A DNA stretch of 41,779 nt, from the IMG/VR virus record IMGVR_UViG_2721755647_000004; one strand, 5' to 3'. Source of the stretch: a virus (taxonomy: Duplodnaviria > Heunggongvirae > Uroviricota > Caudoviricetes). Of the stretch, positions 2,792 through 41,779 are shown in pieces (the first letter of the stretch is position 1; each line of letters starts with the position of its first letter). The notes under the pieces are model-generated. The model was not told the DNA's origin. It ran no database searches and worked only from the letters and a program-made list of their open reading frames with translations. The position numbers were made by a program, and so were the translations under genes.

Positions 2792-5700
2792 TCAACTGAT
2801 ACTGATACCAGCTGTAGATTTCTTCATCACAACAACAAGAAGGTCGCTGATACTGGTCGTTGGCGTCCAGTTATTAGCACCATATGAAGAAACATTGAAA
2901 GTCAGGGTGACATGGCCGTGTCCGGCAGGCATATCAATGACTGATGAAAATACCCTGCTGACATCCGTCGCGGGTTGCTGAAAGATTTCCTGTCCGTTCT
3001 TCAGCACCTGCAGCTTACAGGTTGAATACCAGTATGACTGTTGGTTGTTGCTGTTGAAGTTTTCATGCTTACCACCGCGAAACAGAACGGGGGGGATTAC
3101 TATCTGACGGTCAAAAGCCTGGTCATCGTACACAGTGACCGTTATTGTACCGCTGGCATAACTGCCATTTCTCGGAAAGGCTTTTCCCACCGTTTTGACA
3201 ATATCACCTTCAATCTGGTTGGCTGACAGTTTTCCCAGAATCCGACAGTTCTGATTAATCGTGACGTTGTTGAGCGTCCCGGAGTTCGCGTTCACGTTAC
3301 CGCTGATATCCGCATTTTTCGCAGAAAGTCGACCATCAGGTGTCAGTGAAAACGTTGGGGGATTGCCACCGCTGGTAATGGTGGGAGCCGTCAGATATTT
3401 CAGGAACACTTCGTTCATGAATATCTGATCGCCCTGCCCAACAAACATCGGCTTTGTGTTGCCATTCGCAGGATTAATCATCGCAATCCTGTCCGCCGCC
3501 AGCAGCACCTGACTCTGCATACCGTCAGGAGTATTCTCAATACCGGCACCAATACCCGCGATATAAAGGCGTCCGTCCTGCATCTGCTGCAGCTTCACAG
3601 CCCACATGCTGTTCAGGTTATTATTTGTATCAACCTGAACCTTCTGTATCTGCTGGATCGCTGCACTCTGGTCTTCCAGTTTCTTATTGACGGTCTGCGT
3701 GATTTCATTGCTGACACCCGTAATGGACGTCCTGATTTCAGCCAGGTCAGGCGCAAGCTGACCGTTATCAATCTGCGTCCACAACTCCTGAGCCAGATGG
3801 GTTTTCCCTATCTCTCCTTTGAAAAAATTCAGATAGCCGGATGCATCATCACTCGGCTGGCCAACAGCCTCCACAAATGCCGATTTGCCAACGGTGTTCA
3901 CACTGCGGATGTAAAAATAATAATCATGGCCCGGTTTGATATTGATACTGGCGGCTATCCAGTACAGCGCCGTGCCAAGATAGCGTGCTGTGGTTTCAAC
4001 CTGCCTGATATCCGCAATCCGCTTTTCCGAGAACCAGAACTCAAACTGTACCGTCGGATCATAAACCGCAAGATGCGGCGTGGCGGTTATCTGAAAATAC
4101 CCCGGTGTCAGCTCAATCTGCGACGGCGCTGCCGGTGCGGCAATCCGGAACGATACCGATGCCGGATCGCCCTGCTGCCCCCACGCATTTACTGCCCGGA
4201 CTGTCAGCCTGTAGTTCCCCAGCGCCAGTTGTGTGAAGCGGTATGTGGTTTCCGCCGTCCGGGCTGTGCTGACCAGCCGCTCACTGCCGTCATCCGCTGC
4301 CACGGTCAGGCGAAGCATGAAACTCACGCCCTTCACCACCTTCGGCGTGTCCCAGCGGGCCAGTACCTGATACTCCCCGCTGTCTGCGGTGACTTCGGCA
4401 GTCAGGTGCTGCACTGCTGGCGGCGTGACACCATTCACCGTGCCGCTCTGGTCGCCGTCAAAGTGCGCCCCGTTATCCACGATGGCTTCTTTTTCCGGTA
4501 CATGCTGCACGGCGGTGATGGCATACGTGCCGTCGTCGTTCTCACGGATACTCACGCAGCGGAACAGGCGCTGGCGCAGCGTCGGCAGCTTCAGCCCCCA
4601 CACGCTGTATCCGGCAACGCCGTCAGGAACACGGCTAACTTTCACCTTCACGCCGTCGGTGACGGACTGGACCTCCACGCTGACCGGATTGCCATTTCCG
4701 TCAACCAGGCTTATCAGCGTGGTGCCGGAGGATGGCAGCATGATTTCACGGTCGAGCGTCAGTGTCCGCGCCTGGCTGTTCACCGCCAGCACGCGCCCGC
4801 CGATGCTGATACCCGCATAGTCATCATCGCAGATTTCAATGACATCGCCCGGTACATGGCGAAGCCCTTCTGCGCCCACGCTGAAGTCCACGGTCTGCGT
4901 TTCCAGCAGCTCCGTTTTAATCAGCCACAGCCCGGCGCGGTGTGCCTGCCCCCGACTGGTACAGCCAAAGGCATCCATCTTCGTGACGTTACGACCGTAA
5001 CGGGCAATGGCCTGCGTGTCCTCCACAAGCTCTGTCGCCGTCTCCCAGCCGTTATCCGGGTCAATCCAGTTCACCTCAACGGCATTATGGCGGTCTTTCA
5101 GGGCGCTGAAGCTGTAGCGGAACGGCGCACCATCATCCGGCATCACCACATTACTGCAGTTATAGGTCCACACCTTATCCGATGGTCGGTCCTGCACGAA
5201 TGTCAGCGTCTGTCCGTTCCATACCGGCATACAGCGCATCGCCGAGCAGAAATCACTGAGCACATCCCACGCCTTACGCTGTGTGGTCAGCCAGGCATTA
5301 CAGGTGATGCGCGGCTCCGTGCCACCAAAGCCATCCGGCACCGACTGGTCGCAATTCTGGCCGATGACATACAGCGCCCATTTGTCCACATCCGCCGCAC
5401 CGAGACGTTTCCCCATGCCGTAGCGCGGATGGGTCAGCATATCCCACAGACACCAGGCCATGTTGTTGCTGTATGCTGGCTTAAACGTTCCGTCCCAGAT
5501 ACCGCTGTATTGCCGCGTCTGCGGGTTATAGTTCGACGGCACCTGCAGAATGCGCCCGCGAAGATGATAATTACGGCTCACCTGCTGACTGCCGAACTGT
5601 TCCGAGTCCACCTGCACGCCGACCAGTGCCGTGTTCGGGTAGCACTGTTTCACATCGATGATTTCGGTGTATGACGACCAGAGCGTTTTGTTCTGCAGCT

Positions 5701-17365: not shown

Positions 17366-21046
<3,681 letters not shown>

Positions 21047-22543: not shown

Positions 22544-22870
22544 TCAAGGACGTGACGGCGTAAAGATAAATTGTCTCTTCACTCCCTGACAGGGGCGATT
22601 CTTTTCAAATCGCCATTTCGCCATGGCCTTCACCACTTCATCACGAAACAAATTATGAGGCTCTGAGCGGAGAAAAACGATCCGTGTCACAGTCCCATCA
22701 GCACCAATATCGAACTTAACCTCAACCAGCCCCTTGATATAATTTGCTGCAGCATATTCCGGATATCGTGGATACACCGTCACTAATTGCCGGGGCTCAT
22801 CAGCTTTTTGCTGCGAGCATCCCACTGCCAGGACAGATAACAGAAAAAGTAGTAAAAGGCGTCTTTTCAT
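22544..22870 (-). CDS. lipoprotein with TonB C-terminal-like domain
   Basis: Start at MKRRLLLLFLLSVLAVGCSQQ (lipobox LAVGC). The body YPRYPEYAAANYIKGLVEVKFDIGADGTVTRIVFLRSEPHNLFRDEVVKAMAKWRFE fits the TonB_C pattern (YP..A...G.V.V.F.I..DG.V......F...A..A...WRF). Confidence 0.6.
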   Translation of the reverse strand: MKRRLLLLFLLSVLAVGCSQQKADEPRQLVTVYPRYPEYAAANYIKGLVEVKFDIGADGTVTRIVFLRSEPHNLFRDEVVKAMAKWRFEKNRPCQGVKRQFIFTPSRP

Positions 22871-23350: not shown

Positions 23351-23644
23351 ATGAAAAAAATGTTGTTTTCTGCCGCTCTGGCAATGCTTATTACAGGATG
23401 TGCTCAACAGACGTTTACTGTTGGAAACAAACCTACAGCAGTAACACCAAAGGAAACCATCACCCATCATTTCTTCGTTTCGGGAATTGGGCAGAAGAAA
23501 ACTGTCGATGCAGCAAAAATTTGTGGTGGTGCAGAAAATGTTGTTAAAACAGAAACCCAGCAAACATTCGTAAATGGATTGCTCGGTTTTATTACTTTAG
23601 GCATTTATACTCCGCTGGAAGCGCGTGTGTATTGCTCACAATAA
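23351..23644 (+). CDS. bor: Bor outer-membrane lipoprotein (serum resistance)
   Basis: MKKMLFSAALAMLITGCAQQTFTVGNKPTAVTPKETITHHFFVSGIGQKKTVDAAKICGG... is near-identical to lambda Bor (97 aa); opposite strand to the late genes, as in lambda. Confidence 0.95.
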   Translation: MKKMLFSAALAMLITGCAQQTFTVGNKPTAVTPKETITHHFFVSGIGQKKTVDAAKICGGAENVVKTETQQTFVNGLLGFITLGIYTPLEARVYCSQ

Positions 23645-23675: not shown

Positions 23676-24137
23676 CTATCTGCACTGCTCATTAATATAC
23701 TTCTGGGTTCCTTCCAGTTGTTTTTGCATAGTGATCAGCCTCTCTCTGAGGGTGAAATAATCCCGTTCAGCGGTGTCTGCCAGTCGGGGGGAGGCTGCAT
23801 TATCCACGCCGGAGGCGGTGGTGGCTTCACGCACTGACTGACAGACTGCTTTGATGTGCAACCGACGACGACCAGCGGCAACATCATCACGCAGAGCATC
23901 ATTTTCAGCTTTCGCATCAGCTAACTCCTTCGTGTATTTTGCATCGAGCGCAGCAACATCACGCTGACGCATCTGCATGTCAGTAATTGCCGCGTTCGCC
24001 AGCTTCAGTTCTCTGGCATTTTTGTCGCGCTGGGCTTTGTAGGTAATGGCGTTATTACGGTAATGATTAACAGCCCATGACAGGCAGACGATGATGCAGA
24101 TAACCAGAGCGGAGATAATCGCGGTTACTCTGTTCAT
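23676..24137 (-). CDS. Rz: spanin inner-membrane subunit Rz
   Basis: Start at [45 protein letters not shown]; 153 aa, lambda Rz-like. Confidence 0.9.
23735..23917 (-). CDS. Rz1: spanin outer-membrane lipoprotein Rz1 (embedded in Rz, +1 frame)
   Basis: 60 aa: [60 protein letters not shown], matching lambda Rz1. Confidence 0.9.
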
Positions 24138-24248
24138 TGCTGACCCCACAAACAGATTTCACGCTCAATCTCACGACGAGTCATGAGACCTTTCCATTGC
24201 TTACCGCCAGCATATGTCCAGCGACGTAGCTGATCACATGAGCCTTTG
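24134..24248 (-). pseudogene. R: C-terminal fragment of SAR endolysin R (phage 21 type), separated from its 5' part by the IS insertion
   Basis: Minus-strand translation reads [37 protein letters not shown] stop. The stop overlaps the Rz ATG. Confidence 0.85.
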
Positions 24249-26202
<1,954 letters not shown>

Positions 26203-26591
26203 CCTTTGATATCGCCCTGGTTTATTTTGCGAAGAAGCGTCGATGTTCTGAAATTACCAGCACCCACGTTGTAAACGAATGAGTAAAGAGCGCCGCGCGT
26301 TGTTTCCGGTATATCGACTGTGATGTACGGGTTAATTTGTCTGGCGACAGTGGCAAGGTCTTTATTCAGGAGTGCTTTGCATTCTGCTTTGGTATACGTT
26401 TTACCGAGCATGATGTCTTTTCCTGTATGCCCGTGACATACAGTCCATACACCAACAATATCTTTGTATGGTATGTAGCTGACACCTTCCAGACCATCGT
26501 TACCACTTGGGCCAGTGATTAACACTGATGCTATAGCAATTGCTCCGCCACCAATAGCAGCAGCAACGGCTTTTCGTAATGATGGAGGCAT
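26203..26591 (-). pseudogene. R: N-terminal fragment of SAR endolysin R (phage 21 type), truncated by the IS insertion
   Basis: [59 protein letters not shown]... has a signal-anchor-release N-terminus and lysozyme fold. The frame joins the 24134..24248 fragment across one copy of the target repeat to give a 165-aa protein. Confidence 0.85.
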
Positions 26592-26806
26592 TATTCACCT
26601 CTCGCAGCCTTGCGCTTATCTTCTTTAATCTTGAAATAAAGGTTTGTCAGGTACGTCAGCAGGCCAAATACCAGGCTACCCAGCACACCTATTGCCGCCC
26701 ACTGTGAGGGCGTGACTTTATCGAGCAACTGTAAAAACCAGTACCCGGCACTACCTGCTGAGGTACCATAGGCGACACCCGTTGTTAACTTATCCATGGA
26801 TTTCAT
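26591..26806 (-). CDS. S: class II holin / pinholin S (phage 21 type) with dual-start motif
   Basis: 71 aa: [71 protein letters not shown]; Met1 and Met4 starts; two TM segments; stop overlaps the R start. Confidence 0.9.
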
Positions 26807-26937
26807 AACCCCACCTCGCAGACAAAGCGGGTGTAAATTAAGGGGATACTACGTATCGCAATAAAGGCAGAAACGTAACAGATTCGGAGTCAGTGAATAA
26901 CTCAGGTATTGGGTTATCAGCTAATATCGAGACTCAA

Positions 26938-26968
26938 AAAATGGAAAAACCCGCTCGACGGCGGGTTT
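26938..26968 (-). terminator. intrinsic terminator-like hairpin upstream of S (candidate tR')
   Basis: Stem aaacccgc/gcgggttt with loop tcgacg at 26947..26968. On the minus strand it is followed by a T-run (tttttccatttttt). Confidence 0.45.
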
Positions 26969-27394
26969 AAGCTGTGTGACGAAGTAACCACTCTTAACAG
27001 CATAACCAATTTTTTACGTACGTAAACTACTAAATGATATTTGTGAGAATGCCACCGAGTGTTCAAAACACCACCACAAATGCATAAGAAAACTTCAACA
27101 AATAACCAGTTAATAATTTCCGATGTTATTTTTAGTTTGTTTAAATTAAGCTAAAGAATTATAGAGCACTTATAAATAAGTGCCATTAATATAAATTAGC
27201 TAATAGATTTATTTTTGTTCAGACAAGAGCCATGAATAGGATTAGATAGAAAAGGTTCCGATAAAAATAGAGATCTACTTCACAAATTAAATGAGAAACT
27301 AAAACTTACATCTTGAAATAATCACATTGATTAGATGAATATTTATCGCGCAGTGACATCATTTTTTAATAATAGTTCAAAAAAAGGGCGTACA

Positions 27395-28477
27395 ATGAAA
27401 AAATTAACAGTGGCAATTTCTGCTGTAGCTGCATCAGTACTGATGGCGATGTCTGCTCAGGCAGCTGAAATTTATAATAAAGACAGTAACAAGCTGGATC
27501 TATACGGGAAAGTTAATGCCAAGCACTACTTCTCCTCTAATGATGCAGATGATGGTGATACTACTTATGCCCGTCTTGGCTTCAAAGGTGAAACCCAAAT
27601 CAACGATCAACTGACTGGTTTCGGTCAGTGGGAATATGAATTCAAAGGCAACCGTGCTGAATCTCAAGGTTCTTCCAAAGACAAAACCCGTCTTGCATTT
27701 GCAGGCCTGAAATTTGGTGATTACGGCTCAATCGATTACGGCCGTAACTACGGTGTAGCATACGACATCGGTGCGTGGACTGACGTTCTGCCAGAATTCG
27801 GTGGTGATACCTGGACCCAAACAGATGTGTTCATGACTGGTCGCACTACTGGTGTTGCAACTTATCGTAACAACGACTTCTTTGGTCTGGTCGATGGCCT
27901 GAACTTTGCTGCTCAGTATCAGGGTAAAAATGACCGCACTGACGTAACTGAAGCCAATGGTGATGGTTTCGGTTTCTCCACTACTTATGAGTATGAAGGA
28001 TTCGGCGTGGGTGCAACCTATGCTAAATCAGATCGCACTGACGGTCAGGTCGCCTATGGTAAGAGCAAATTCAATGCCTCCGGCAAAAATGCGGAAGTAT
28101 GGGCTGCAGGCCTGAAATATGATGCGAACAATATCTATCTGGCTACCACATATTCTGAAACTCAGAATATGACCGTTTTTGGTAATAACCATATTGCAAA
28201 CAAAGCACAAAACTTTGAAGCAGTAGCACAATATCAGTTTGACTTCGGTCTGCGTCCATCTGTTGCTTACCTTCAGTCAAAAGGTAAAGACCTTGGTGTT
28301 CATGGTGACCGAGACTTAGTCAAGTATGTCGATGTCGGTGCTACTTACTACTTTAATAAAAACATGTCCACTTTTGTTGATTACAAAATCAACTTAATTG
28401 ACGATAGTAAGTTTACCAAAACAGCTGGTATTGATACCGACGACATCGTCGCTGTAGGTCTGGTTTATCAGTTCTAA
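27395..28477 (+). CDS. nmpC: outer-membrane general porin, phage-borne NmpC/Lc (OmpC/OmpF family)
   Basis: [23 protein letters not shown] signal peptide, [24 protein letters not shown] and C-terminal ...VAVGLVYQF porin signatures; AAAGGG Shine-Dalgarno upstream; between Q and S as in DLP12 and PA-2. Confidence 0.9.
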
Positions 28478-28610
28478 TCTGACTTACGAAAAAGATATGT
28501 TGCGGGAGGCTTTGCCTCCGCAACATATAAGTGGAGCCCTCAAGCCACTTCCTTTAGAAGCACTACCTTGCTTCTTACTATATAAACCTTCTGTTATATA
28601 TTACCCTTTA

Positions 28611-28641
28611 TTTTGGGGGCGTTTCCACGCCCCATTTTTAA
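28611..28641 (+). terminator. rho-independent terminator downstream of nmpC
   Basis: Hairpin ggggcg/cgcccc (28616..28634) followed by attttta. A second GC hairpin gttgcgggaggc-tttg-cctccgcaac lies at 28499..28524. Confidence 0.5.
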
Positions 28642-28665
28642 TAACTTTTAGTAAACAATTGCATA

Positions 28666-29064
28666 TCAATTAGAATTATTAGCAACGATATCCATATCTA
28701 ACCGGATATCTAATGCCATTAACATCCCTTCAATTATGCCCTCAGCCTTCTGTAACCTTTTCCCGATATAACCATCCGAGCAGCAATGCTTACTTGCCAG
28801 TGACATGAATGTCATACCACATACATAATAATCTACTAATAAATCGTGTAAATCGCTGTTGTTCTTTTTCAGACGGGCCATGCACCCGCAAATGATCATC
28901 GCGTCATCGTCACAACATTGCGGGCGAGATTTTACTTTTGAAGGAATTAATCCCTTAAAACCGGCGGCAATGGACGACCAGGTCACATCTTCATGATTAT
29001 TAGCCGCCCACGCACCCCAACGCTCAAGAACCATCTGAATATCACGCATCAACTTACTCCACAA
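28666..29064 (-). CDS. Q: late-gene antiterminator Q (phage 82 / DLP12 QuuD type)
   Basis: ...[75 protein letters not shown]... recalled as DLP12 QuuD-like; the true start may be the internal Met at 29049. Confidence 0.8.
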
Positions 29065-40410: not shown

Positions 40411-40647
40411 ATGTCTCGACTAATCACTTTACAGGACTGGGCTAAAGAAGAATTTGGGGACTTAGCACCAAGTGAGCGAGTTCTGAAAAAATACGCGCAA
40501 GGGAAAATGATGGCCCCACCCGCTATAAAAGTTGGTCGCTACTGGATGATTGACCGAAATTCCCGTTTTGTAGGAACGCTTGCAGAACCGCAACTCCCAA
40601 TAAACGCAAACCCAAAACTCCAACGGATAATCGCTGATGGCTGCTAG
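40411..40647 (+). CDS. xis: excisionase-like protein
   Basis: 78 aa directly upstream of and overlapping int; AGGAGG Shine-Dalgarno at 40390..40395. Confidence 0.65.
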   Translation: MSRLITLQDWAKEEFGDLAPSERVLKKYAQGKMMAPPAIKVGRYWMIDRNSRFVGTLAEPQLPINANPKLQRIIADGC

Positions 40648-41779
40648 ACCCCGATCTCACAAAATCTCTATACCCAATTTATATTGCAAATTAGATAAGC
40701 GAACCGGAAAGGTATATTGGCAATACAAACATCCACTATCCGGTCGTTTTCATAGCTTAGGAACTGATGAGAATGAAGCAAAACAAGTTGCTACTGAAGC
40801 AAATACCATTATTGCTGAACAACGTACCCGACAAATATTAAGCGTCAATGAGCGTCTGGAAAGAATGAAAGGCAGGCGCTCAGACATTACGGTGACAGAA
40901 TGGCTTGATAAATATATTTCTATCCAGGAGGACAGGCTGCAACATAATGAACTAAGACCCAACTCCTATCGGCAAAAAGGCAAACCCATTCGTCTTTTCC
41001 GTGAGCATTGTGGAATACAACACCTCAAGGATATTACCGCACTTGATATTGCCGAAATAATTGATGCTGTAAAGGCTGAAGGTCATAACAGGATGGCGCA
41101 AGTCGTGAGAATGGTGTTAATCGACGTCTTCAAAGAAGCACAACACGCAGGACATGTTCCGCCAGGATTTAACCCAGCGCAGGCAACAAAACAACCGCGA
41201 AATCGAGTAAACCGCCAAAGATTATCACTGCCCGAATGGCAGGCAATATTTGACAGCGTAAGCAGACGGCAGCCCTATTTAAAATGCGGGATGCTACTTG
41301 CTCTTGTCACTGGACAACGTTTAGGCGATATCTGCAATTTGAAATTCTCTGATATCTGGGACGACATGTTGCACATTACTCAGAAAAAAACCGGTTCAAA
41401 ACTTGCTATTCCGCTTAACCTGAAATGCGATGCTCTGAATATTACCCTTCGTGAAGTTATATCTCAGTGCAGGGATGCTGTTGTTAGTAAATATCTGGTC
41501 CATTACCGTCACACAACCTCTCAAGCAAACAGAGGAGACCAGGTTTCTGCGAATACTCTGACAACGGCTTTTAAAAAGGCCAGGGAAAAATGTGGCATAA
41601 AATGGGAGCAAGGAACTGCGCCCACATTTCATGAGCAGCGATCTCTGTCAGAACGGTTATATCGGGAACAGGGTCTGGATACGCAAAAGTTGTTAGGCCA
41701 TAAATCCAGAAAAATGACCGACCGATACAATGATGATCGTGGTAAAGACTGGATTATCGTAGATATCAAAACAGCATAG
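40637..41779 (+). CDS. int: tyrosine-type phage integrase
   Basis: 380 aa with C-terminal catalytic-domain motifs (R...HEQRS ... LLGHKS...Y); the stop codon is the last three bases of the window. Confidence 0.9.
   Translation: MAARPRSHKISIPNLYCKLDKRTGKVYWQYKHPLSGRFHSLGTDENEAKQVATEANTIIAEQRTRQILSVNERLERMKGRRSDITVTEWLDKYISIQEDRLQHNELRPNSYRQKGKPIRLFREHCGIQHLKDITALDIAEIIDAVKAEGHNRMAQVVRMVLIDVFKEAQHAGHVPPGFNPAQATKQPRNRVNRQRLSLPEWQAIFDSVSRRQPYLKCGMLLALVTGQRLGDICNLKFSDIWDDMLHITQKKTGSKLAIPLNLKCDALNITLREVISQCRDAVVSKYLVHYRHTTSQANRGDQVSANTLTTAFKKAREKCGIKWEQGTAPTFHEQRSLSERLYREQGLDTQKLLGHKSRKMTDRYNDDRGKDWIIVDIKTA

Follow-up and report, generated by a model that had tools for sequence, protein, structure and literature searches.

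An intact Lc/NmpC-type porin cassette with an IpeX homologue between Q and the probable late promoter of a lambda-like prophage

Introduction

Porins of the Lc/NmpC type are long-known "morons" of lambdoid phages—the gene has been known since the 1980s, and its arrangement was published decades ago. The lc porin gene of lambdoid phage PA-2 was reportedly described by Blasband et al. in 1986. The same gene, deposited in the 1986 GenBank record of PA-2 (J02580), gave the porin family its name, and the record holds Rz, R and S on one strand, followed after ~590 nt by the porin on the other strand. In the DLP12 (qsr′) prophage of E. coli K-12, the layout runs quuD–nmpC (opposite strand)–essD–rrrD–rzpD, with nmpC broken by IS5 after codon 346. 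DLP12 also encodes IpeX, a 167-nt sRNA that forms part of the porin transcript and is released from it by processing (PMC12197685). IpeX represses ompC and ompF (PMC5069750; PMC3617542), with reviews conflicting on base pairing as its mode of action (PMC5069750, PMC3617542), and clinical isolates contain measurable ipeX RNA (PMC7177473). A further point of reference is phage 933W, in whose record the late promoter pR′ (20666-20693), the qut site (20707-20714) and a terminator (20726-20748) come directly after the antiterminator gene Q.

Here, we examined a stretch of DNA of 41,779 nt (hereafter, the window), which holds a complete lambda-like prophage extending from the integrase gene (40637-41779) to the tail fibres, with the late genes on the − strand. 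The porin gene of this prophage is an intact allele of the Lc/NmpC moron, and both the gene and this particular allele were already known. Our explanation of the whole locus, to which we assign a probability of about 0.88, is that of an Lc/NmpC moron cassette placed between Q and the late promoter, carrying the porin together with IpeX and oriented divergently from late transcription.

An intact porin gene of the Lc/NmpC family

The gene around which the cassette is built has the following position.

27395..28477, + strand: Lc/NmpC-type porin gene, with the signal peptide at 27395-27463 and the mature porin at 27464-28474

In the ORF list of the window, 27395-28477 (+) is an ORF of 360 aa plus a stop codon, with a Shine-Dalgarno sequence (AAGGG) located 6 nt 5′ of the ATG at 27395. 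A longer porin ORF of 380 aa, starting from an ATG at 27335 and annotated in some phage records, was considered and rejected: it is devoid of a Shine-Dalgarno sequence, and the signal peptide would be buried within the product. The encoded protein covers the Pfam PF00267 (Porin_1) profile in full (positions 1-337 of 337; E=1.9e-151, 504.7 bits against a cut-off of 23.7), and its score for the NCBIfam OmpC subfamily (521.2 bits) exceeds the cut-off of 484. Solved chains of OmpC, OmpK36, OmpK37 and PhoE align with it from the mature AEIYNKD to the C-terminal YQF (E ~1e-137), and this end-to-end alignment revealed no internal stop or frameshift—the latter being the defect that the first-pass annotation of this DNA had named as speaking against its own reading, i.e., a full-length OmpC/OmpF-family porin with a signal peptide. 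The ORF, the Porin_1 match and the chain alignment all uphold that reading. The first 23 residues are those annotated as sig_peptide for PA-2 lc; they precede AEIYNKD and end in an A-x-A cleavage site, and the mature chains in the PDB begin at residue 24.

The pore-lining residues K16, R42, R82, D113, E117 and R132 (OmpF numbering) are all kept in the window porin, as are the loop-3 motif LPEFGGD and the C-terminal Phe (YQF). The same columns are also found in deposited OmpC chains. Drawing from the 62% identity to OmpC and the end-to-end alignment to the OmpC and OmpK36 chains, the protein is predicted to be exported via the Sec pathway and to form a trimeric, 16-strand outer-membrane barrel. 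The chromosomal porins OmpC, OmpF and PhoE of E. coli and OmpD of Salmonella share the Pfam family, the pore-lining residues, the loop-3 motif and the C-terminal Phe; unlike these general porins, the window porin is phage-borne and is followed by an sRNA of its own that would act against the host porins.

Relatives, allelic differences and prevalence

Protein comparisons revealed that the window porin is 100% identical to the porins of phages ev017, ev207, 2G7b, Perceval and several PhiR phages. Identity amounts to 90.7% both with PA-2 Lc (GenBank J02580) and with the reconstructed K-12 NmpC—the two proteins against which the first-pass annotation had proposed an alignment—and to 81% with P7 NmpC, falling to only 62% with K-12 OmpC. 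The differences from Lc and NmpC are gathered in five blocks, all of which align with surface loops L4-L8 of OmpF, and the L4-L8 allele of the window thus differs from that of DLP12 NmpC. Between PA-2 Lc and the window porin there are 34 differences, including a 3-residue and a 2-residue deletion in the window protein (360 vs 365 aa), and the N-terminal 150 residues (L1-L3) are essentially identical. At the DNA level, the PA-2 record and the window share the order of genes and 90.6% identity across 2.5 kb, together with the 23-aa signal peptide.

The correspondence with DLP12 comprises both the gene order given above and the flanking genes ybcN, ninE, ybcO, rusA, ylcG and quuD. However, the DLP12 nmpC gene is broken and the window gene is whole, and the porin promoter in the window is still joined to IpeX, with no IS5 between them, unlike in K-12. 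The insertion sequences differ accordingly in their position: IS5 in nmpC for DLP12, and IS100 in the endolysin gene for the window prophage.

The same layout recurs in the records of E. coli 536, phage ev017, K-12 DLP12, PA-2 and 434B, and positions 27100-28700 of the window are 100% identical in E. coli 536 and many further genomes. The cassette lies in the same place, and together with its flanks is 99.3-99.9% identical in DNA, in ev017, ev207, 2G7b, Perceval (from LF82) and the PhiR phages of ECOR strains; these phages produce virions and their lysis cassette is intact, whereas the window prophage has IS100 in rrrD. Altogether, the cassette was found at 99-100% identity in at least 19 GenBank phage records, always between Q and the holin gene, and several of these records name a propagation host. 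The exact porin sequence occurs on at least 1000 contigs, where it is named either "porin OmpC" or "outer membrane porin protein LC". Counting genomes with a place covering at least 80% of a 1.6-kb query (27100-28700, flanks included), we find the cassette in 2462 of 5426 complete E. coli genomes (~45%).

A self-contained cassette and its expression

The porin is part of a self-contained cassette of ~1.65 kb (~27031-28690), composed of an AT-rich regulatory region, the porin gene itself and an IpeX-homologous 3′ extension with its terminator. The first of these parts is as follows.

27031..27394, + strand: AT-rich regulatory region upstream of the porin, 25-28% GC

The GC content of 25-28% upstream of the porin compares with ~46-55% further out on either side, in the nin genes next to Q and in the DNA of the lysis genes and IS100. 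Several traits of a moron are combined at this locus—a terminator of its own, a deviating base composition, and flanks (Q and pR′) that are contiguous in 933W. Moreover, in Lambda_4B5 the same site holds a different gene in reverse orientation, encoding the lipocalin Blc. The window retains, without any change, the two CRP sites of the PA-2 annotation (J02580), at 26972-26992 and at 27267-27287 (the second site). A consensus scan called no sigma-70 promoter on the + strand upstream of the porin, and no homology of this upstream region to the ompC promoter/micF region was found. An OmpR C1-like box at 27305-27324 (14 of 20 matches to ompC C1) was discarded as a candidate, as 241 of 2000 dinucleotide shuffles scored as well.

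The Perceval porin, identical in protein sequence to that of the window, is transcribed 10-fold over the prophage background in the E. coli LF82 lysogen (PMC9928086), and NmpC protein has been detected in extra-intestinal E. coli (ExPEC) isolates (PMC2947995). The proposal in the first-pass annotation that this is a lysogenic-conversion gene holds in the sense of a moron that is intact in a lambdoid prophage and whose identical allele is transcribed in a lysogen. According to PMC3333887, nmpC is quiescent in strains including K-12, so expression of the porin may depend on conditions.

The IpeX homologue and predicted terminators between the porin and Q

Downstream of the porin, two features of opposite polarity overlap in the intergenic region that separates it from Q.

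28475..28641, + strand: homologue of the IpeX sRNA, a 3′ extension of the porin transcript, 93.4% identical to the nmpC-quuD intergenic region of K-12 DLP12
28489..28529, − strand: long hairpin (28496-28529), followed by CTTTTTCG on the − strand only; read from the sequence and from folds

Folding of the 167-nt stretch that begins at the stop codon and ends at the T-run gave a z-score of -6.9 relative to shuffles, as for a highly structured RNA. On the + strand, an intrinsic terminator consists of a stem at 28616-28633 followed by ATTTTT, ~140 nt past the porin stop. The hairpin at 28496-28529, located just after the porin stop, has no T-run on this strand, where it corresponds to the 5′ stem-loop of IpeX. 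The terminator of its own that had been ascribed to the porin gene in the first pass thus exists as a canonical + strand terminator, but it lies ~140 nt beyond the stop codon and ends a unit made of porin plus sRNA. On the − strand, the hairpin and T-run at 28529-28489 probably terminate the early transcript in which Q is contained.

The identification of IpeX relies on homology to the K-12 locus together with the literature. Rfam contains no family matching the IpeX region, either across the whole window at the gathering threshold or across 26800-28750 at E values up to 5; the weak matches to sau-19 and Trp_leader recognise hairpins only and were rejected. We also note that IpeX, positioned downstream of the porin, belongs to the cassette and had been overlooked in the earlier reading of this DNA. 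Another sRNA, svsR of a related AIEC prophage (PMC12803456), was considered and set aside, since it maps to the 3′ end of cI and has no relation to the porin cassette.

Q and the placement of the late promoter

The elements that bear on the start of late transcription, all located on the − strand, are listed below.

28666..29049, − strand: late-gene antiterminator Q (QuuD type); Pfam Phage_antitermQ, E=7.7e-54; named quuD in identical genomes
26945..27026, − strand: homologue of the 933W pR′-qut-terminator module, between the porin start and S, from alignments to the 933W annotation
27026-27021, − strand: -35 element TTTACG of the pR′ homologue
27004-26999, − strand: -10 element TATGCT of the pR′ homologue, after a spacer of 16 nt
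~26993, − strand: predicted transcription start of the pR′ homologue
Within the module, − strand: initial transcribed AAGAGTGGTTAC, identical to 933W
26985-26978, − strand: qut-equivalent, by homology to 933W
26968-26947, − strand: terminator hairpin of the pR′ homologue module, then a T-run
27352..27378, − strand: sigmaE-like elements GAACT (27378-27374), 16 nt, TCACT (27356-27352), read from the sequence and pointing to S
26591..26806, − strand: S21-type (pin)holin gene essD, which opens the lysis cassette; Pfam Phage_holin_2_1, E=2e-35

The Q protein of the window is 81% identical to Q933W across 120 aa. Its relation to Q21, as judged by comparison with solved structures, is distant (E=4e-8), and the binding element of Q21 is therefore not transferable to this locus. 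The Q protein of lambda belongs to a different family, so lambda is of no use for placing pR′ here; moreover, no homology to the Q-pR′-tR′-S region of lambda was found in the intergenic regions between Q and S of the window. A more suitable reference emerged when the intergenic region between S and the porin was used as the query against 2.3 Gb of sequence, yielding matches to Stx phages and phiP27 (E=7e-8 and 2e-14): ~85 nt around the − strand hairpin at 26968-26947 resemble the sequence that follows Q in these phages. In 933W, the distance from the promoter TTTACG-16-TATCAT to the second terminator is 258 nt, and the same pR′-to-tR′ distance was obtained for the Sakai Stx phages by dRNA-seq/Term-seq (PMC7547250); the annotated 933W promoter is therefore the experimentally supported one.

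The window shares with 933W and with Sakai Sp5 (the source of the StxS sRNA) the -35 element, the 16-nt spacer, the AAGAGTGGTTAC and the hairpin of the form CCCGCC....GCGGG followed by a T-run. The two modules differ in three respects. The -10 element is TATGCT in the window vs TATCAT in 933W—the former is weaker, with 4 of 6 matches, and the consensus scan did not call the pR′ homologue. Additionally, the 933W module overlaps the 3′ end of Q, whereas that of the window lies 1.64 kb from Q, with the porin cassette between them. Finally, the 933W region past the first hairpin (the second terminator at +258 and StxS-S) has no counterpart in the window, where S follows after ~140 nt. The pR′-like module of DLP12, by comparison, is identical to that of the window.

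The TAAGAGTGGTTAC core motif occurs once in the window. Of the 12 loci compared, 9 have a single copy, always on the late strand, and in the 8 of these with Q and late genes annotated the copy falls between the two. The PA-2 record (J02580) contains no Q, and there TAAGAGTGGTTAC is located between lc and S. In phiP27, a further gene separates the TAAGAGTGGTTAC module from Q, the distance being 1.37 kb. Taken as a whole, these comparisons identify the pR′ homologue at 27026-26945 (−) as the probable Q-dependent late promoter, a function in concert with QuuD that is predicted purely by homology. In the stretch between Q and the porin stop (28665 to 28530), the consensus scan called no promoter on the − strand, and inspection by hand revealed nothing above 8 of 12 matches.

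An independent indication comes from a study of the DLP12 lysis module, in which a reporter fragment spanned -121 to +650 of the operon (PMC7918800). The primer Pdlp12Fw (at -121) maps to 27448-27467 (−) of the window, which places the published +1 of the DLP12 lysis operon near 27346, between the porin ORF and S. The sigmaE-like elements at 27352-27378 coincide with this +1, and we tentatively assign them to it.

With the pR′ homologue located on the S side of the porin, the late transcript most likely begins beyond the porin, which would then lie outside the late transcription unit, as both homology and primer mapping suggest. Antisense transcription of the porin gene would then most likely have a single possible source, an early transcript that runs on past Q. 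The porin does not appear to occupy a position downstream of pR′/qut, as stx does in Stx phages, since the sole homologue of the module lies on its S side. The first-pass expectation that late transcription crosses the porin antisense is thus probably wrong, in view of the pR′/qut homologue at 27026-26945 and of the DLP12 +1, both beyond the porin.

Prophage context and lysis genes

Beyond the holin gene, the − strand carries a lysozyme gene (E=1.9e-33) and then Rz. The profile matches for Q, for holin S and for the lysozyme all fall on the − strand, in agreement with the first-pass description of a porin gene situated between Q and S on the opposite strand. The endolysin gene rrrD is split by IS100 (~24248-26203; istA and istB), an IS100-rrrD junction shared by only 5 of 5426 complete E. 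coli genomes. With this gene disrupted, host lysis by the window prophage is very probably blocked; the porin cassette has remained intact.

The classical logic for PA-2 is the exclusion of its own kind by removal of OmpC. In the window, the last 200 residues of the tail-tip protein J are 99.5% identical to J of phage 21, the native receptor of which is LamB (PMC11336670). Own-kind exclusion in the style of PA-2 does not obviously apply here; exclusion would be aimed at other phages, because J matches that of a LamB user. In the library searched, no report on the phenotype of PA-2 lysogens was found.

Alternative explanations

The placement of the porin outside the late unit has to be weighed against an arrangement in which the late promoter would sit just after Q and Q-modified polymerase would cross the porin antisense for ~1.8 kb to reach S, with head-on interference between the two transcripts. 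Such an arrangement would agree with lambda and 933W, where pR′ overlaps the end of Q or comes immediately after it, and the − strand hairpin and T-run at 28529-28489 could in principle be a tR′-like terminator. However, the − strand shows no promoter-like site at 28665-28530, the 933W-type pR′/qut/terminator homologue lies beyond the porin and its TAAGAGTGGTTAC is single in the window, the published +1 of the DLP12 lysis operon likewise maps beyond the porin ORF, and phiP27 provides a case where the module is separated from Q by >1.3 kb with a gene between—all of which leaves a late unit containing the porin decidedly improbable. A gene that is intact but silent, under silencing of the H-NS type as for nmpC and ompN in laboratory strains, and that confers no phenotype on the lysogen, is also unlikely in our judgment. 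The upstream GC content of 25-28% is typical of silenced, horizontally acquired DNA, the + strand upstream yielded no consensus promoter, and nmpC is, according to PMC3333887 (citing Prilipov 1998 and Highton 1985), not expressed in many E. coli strains. On the other hand, the silence in K-12 is ascribed to an insertion element that is absent from the window gene; the identical allele reaches 10-fold over the prophage background in LF82 (PMC9928086); NmpC appears in ExPEC proteomes (PMC2947995) and ipeX RNA in clinical isolates (PMC7177473); and thousands of genomes carry the ORF in perfectly conserved form.

The gene could also be taken for a chromosomal ompC paralogue, or for host DNA beside a prophage remnant, given that PGAP names it ompC and that its score lies above the NCBIfam OmpC-subfamily cut-off. 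Yet the window is a complete prophage, the protein shares only 62% identity with K-12 OmpC, and at least 19 GenBank phage records have the same cassette in the same place between Q and the holin gene. An identity as chromosomal ompC is refuted by the presence of the cassette in the packaged genomes of isolated phages, and we attach next to no probability to this explanation as a whole.

Proposed mechanism and implications

Returning to the moron cassette between Q and the late promoter, the following sequence of events would account for the locus. The cassette would be transcribed on its own in the lysogen, as the literature describes for the identical allele in Perceval, and the porin would be exported and inserted into the outer membrane as a trimeric 16-strand barrel, as its 62% identity to OmpC suggests. 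IpeX would be cut from the porin transcript and lower host OmpC and OmpF, as described for the IpeX of DLP12, with the net effect that part of the host OmpC/OmpF is exchanged for the phage porin. This exchange may alter the permeability of the cell as well as the receptors that its surface presents to phages and colicins. The late transcript, in turn, would start from the pR′ homologue (27026-26999, −), diverging from porin transcription with no overlap between the two. In this particular prophage, IS100 in the endolysin gene would cripple the lytic programme, with the porin cassette remaining whole.

Two further readings, which we consider jointly and to which we give only a slim chance, extend this scheme. 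The porin and Q units are convergent, with strand-specific terminators that would be interdigitated—the + strand one (28616-28641) lying past the − strand one (28529-28489). Were this so, the 3′ UTR of the Q mRNA would match all of IpeX in perfect complementarity, across ~150 nt, and the IpeX/porin transcript may act as an antisense brake on the Q mRNA and thereby on the lytic switch, analogous to the paQ RNA of lambda; conversely, induction could destroy IpeX and relieve the repression of the host porins. If true, this speculative antisense reading would couple a lysogenic-conversion cassette to the lysis-lysogeny switch. In the second reading, which is more modest, the allele of loops L4-L8 may represent a distinct surface serotype, selected for escape from phages, colicins or antibodies that recognise Lc/NmpC.

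A cassette positioned between Q and the late promoter would account for the fact that functional phages tolerate a reverse-oriented gene at this site. The findings also bear on genome annotation: the RefSeq/PGAP label "ompC" is borne here by a phage Lc/NmpC porin that is accompanied by IpeX, a regulator of the true OmpC and OmpF. Finally, given its occurrence in ~45% of complete E. coli genomes, the cassette is of relevance to the outer membranes of clinical strains—to their permeability, to the entry of antibiotics and to their receptors for phages and colicins.

Probable late promoter and lysis-operon start

The stretch at 26945-27026 (-), lying 1.64 kb from Q, was identified as a homologue of the pR'/qut/first-terminator module of phage 933W. 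Of the CRP sites annotated for PA-2, the first corresponds to 26972-26992 and coincides with the conserved qut/initial-transcribed region; for this reason, its annotation as a CRP site may be mistaken. Closer to the porin gene, we observed a further set of promoter elements on the same strand:

27352-27378 (-): SigmaE-like promoter elements directed towards the lysis genes, with +1 at ~27346

These elements overlap the ribosome-binding region of the porin on the opposite strand and agree with the published +1 of the DLP12 lysis operon, whose place in the window was deduced from the position of a primer.

In the Stx phages, the first hairpin with a T7 run occupies approximately nucleotides +26 to +48 of the transcript from pR' (927-949 of the 933W locus analysed and 1051-1072 of a second locus, L007). 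Since the published lysogen transcript, StxS-L, reaches +258, transcription there seems to continue through this hairpin. In the window, the homologous hairpin is the sole terminator before S—a configuration that might be related to the low-level expression of DLP12 lysis genes reported in K-12.

Disruption of the endolysin gene

The SAR-endolysin gene rrrD is interrupted by an insertion sequence:

24248-26203: IS100 (IS21-family), with imperfect terminal inverted repeats
24335-25357: istA of IS100
25354-26136: istB of IS100
24134-24247 and 26193-26591: rrrD fragments on either side of IS100

Because of this interruption, the prophage should be lysis-defective. Among 5426 complete E. coli genomes, the same IS100/rrrD junction was present in just five: Rb-3, FDAARGOS_1256, 85.0412, TUM13754 and ECE170.

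Porin alleles and tail-tip protein J

When the porin (27395-28477) was compared with its counterparts in PA-2, K-12 and Chlobot, the differences were found almost only in surface loops L4-L8; there is next to no variation in the signal peptide or in loops L1-L3. Phage alleles fall into at least three classes, which are ~100%, ~94% and ~91% identical to that of the window. The receptor-binding C-terminus of the tail-tip protein gpJ (2795-3394, -) is 99.5% identical to the corresponding end of J of phage 21, a phage for which LamB is the native receptor (PMC11336670), and only 55-57% identical to lambda J.

Probable convergent terminators and further accessory genes

Within 28489-28641, terminators of both strands are convergent, strand-specific and interdigitated:

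28616-28641 (+): + strand terminator
28529-28496 (-): hairpin of the probable - strand terminator, followed by a T-run and situated beyond the + strand terminator

A Q transcript ending at the - strand terminator would be complementary, over ~150 nt, to the entire IpeX homologue.

Two more accessory genes were found just past the lysis cassette:

23351-23644 (+): iss/bor, serum-survival lipoprotein
22544-22870 (-): TonB-family fragment

In the related prophage Perceval, the TonB fragment is reportedly expressed 8-fold above background. Escherichia virus Lambda_4B5, a relative with a similar Q, carries a reverse-oriented gene for the lipocalin Blc (3586-4110 of the locus analysed) at the position occupied here by the porin. 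Directly behind Q there appears to be a hot spot for accessory genes in reverse orientation.
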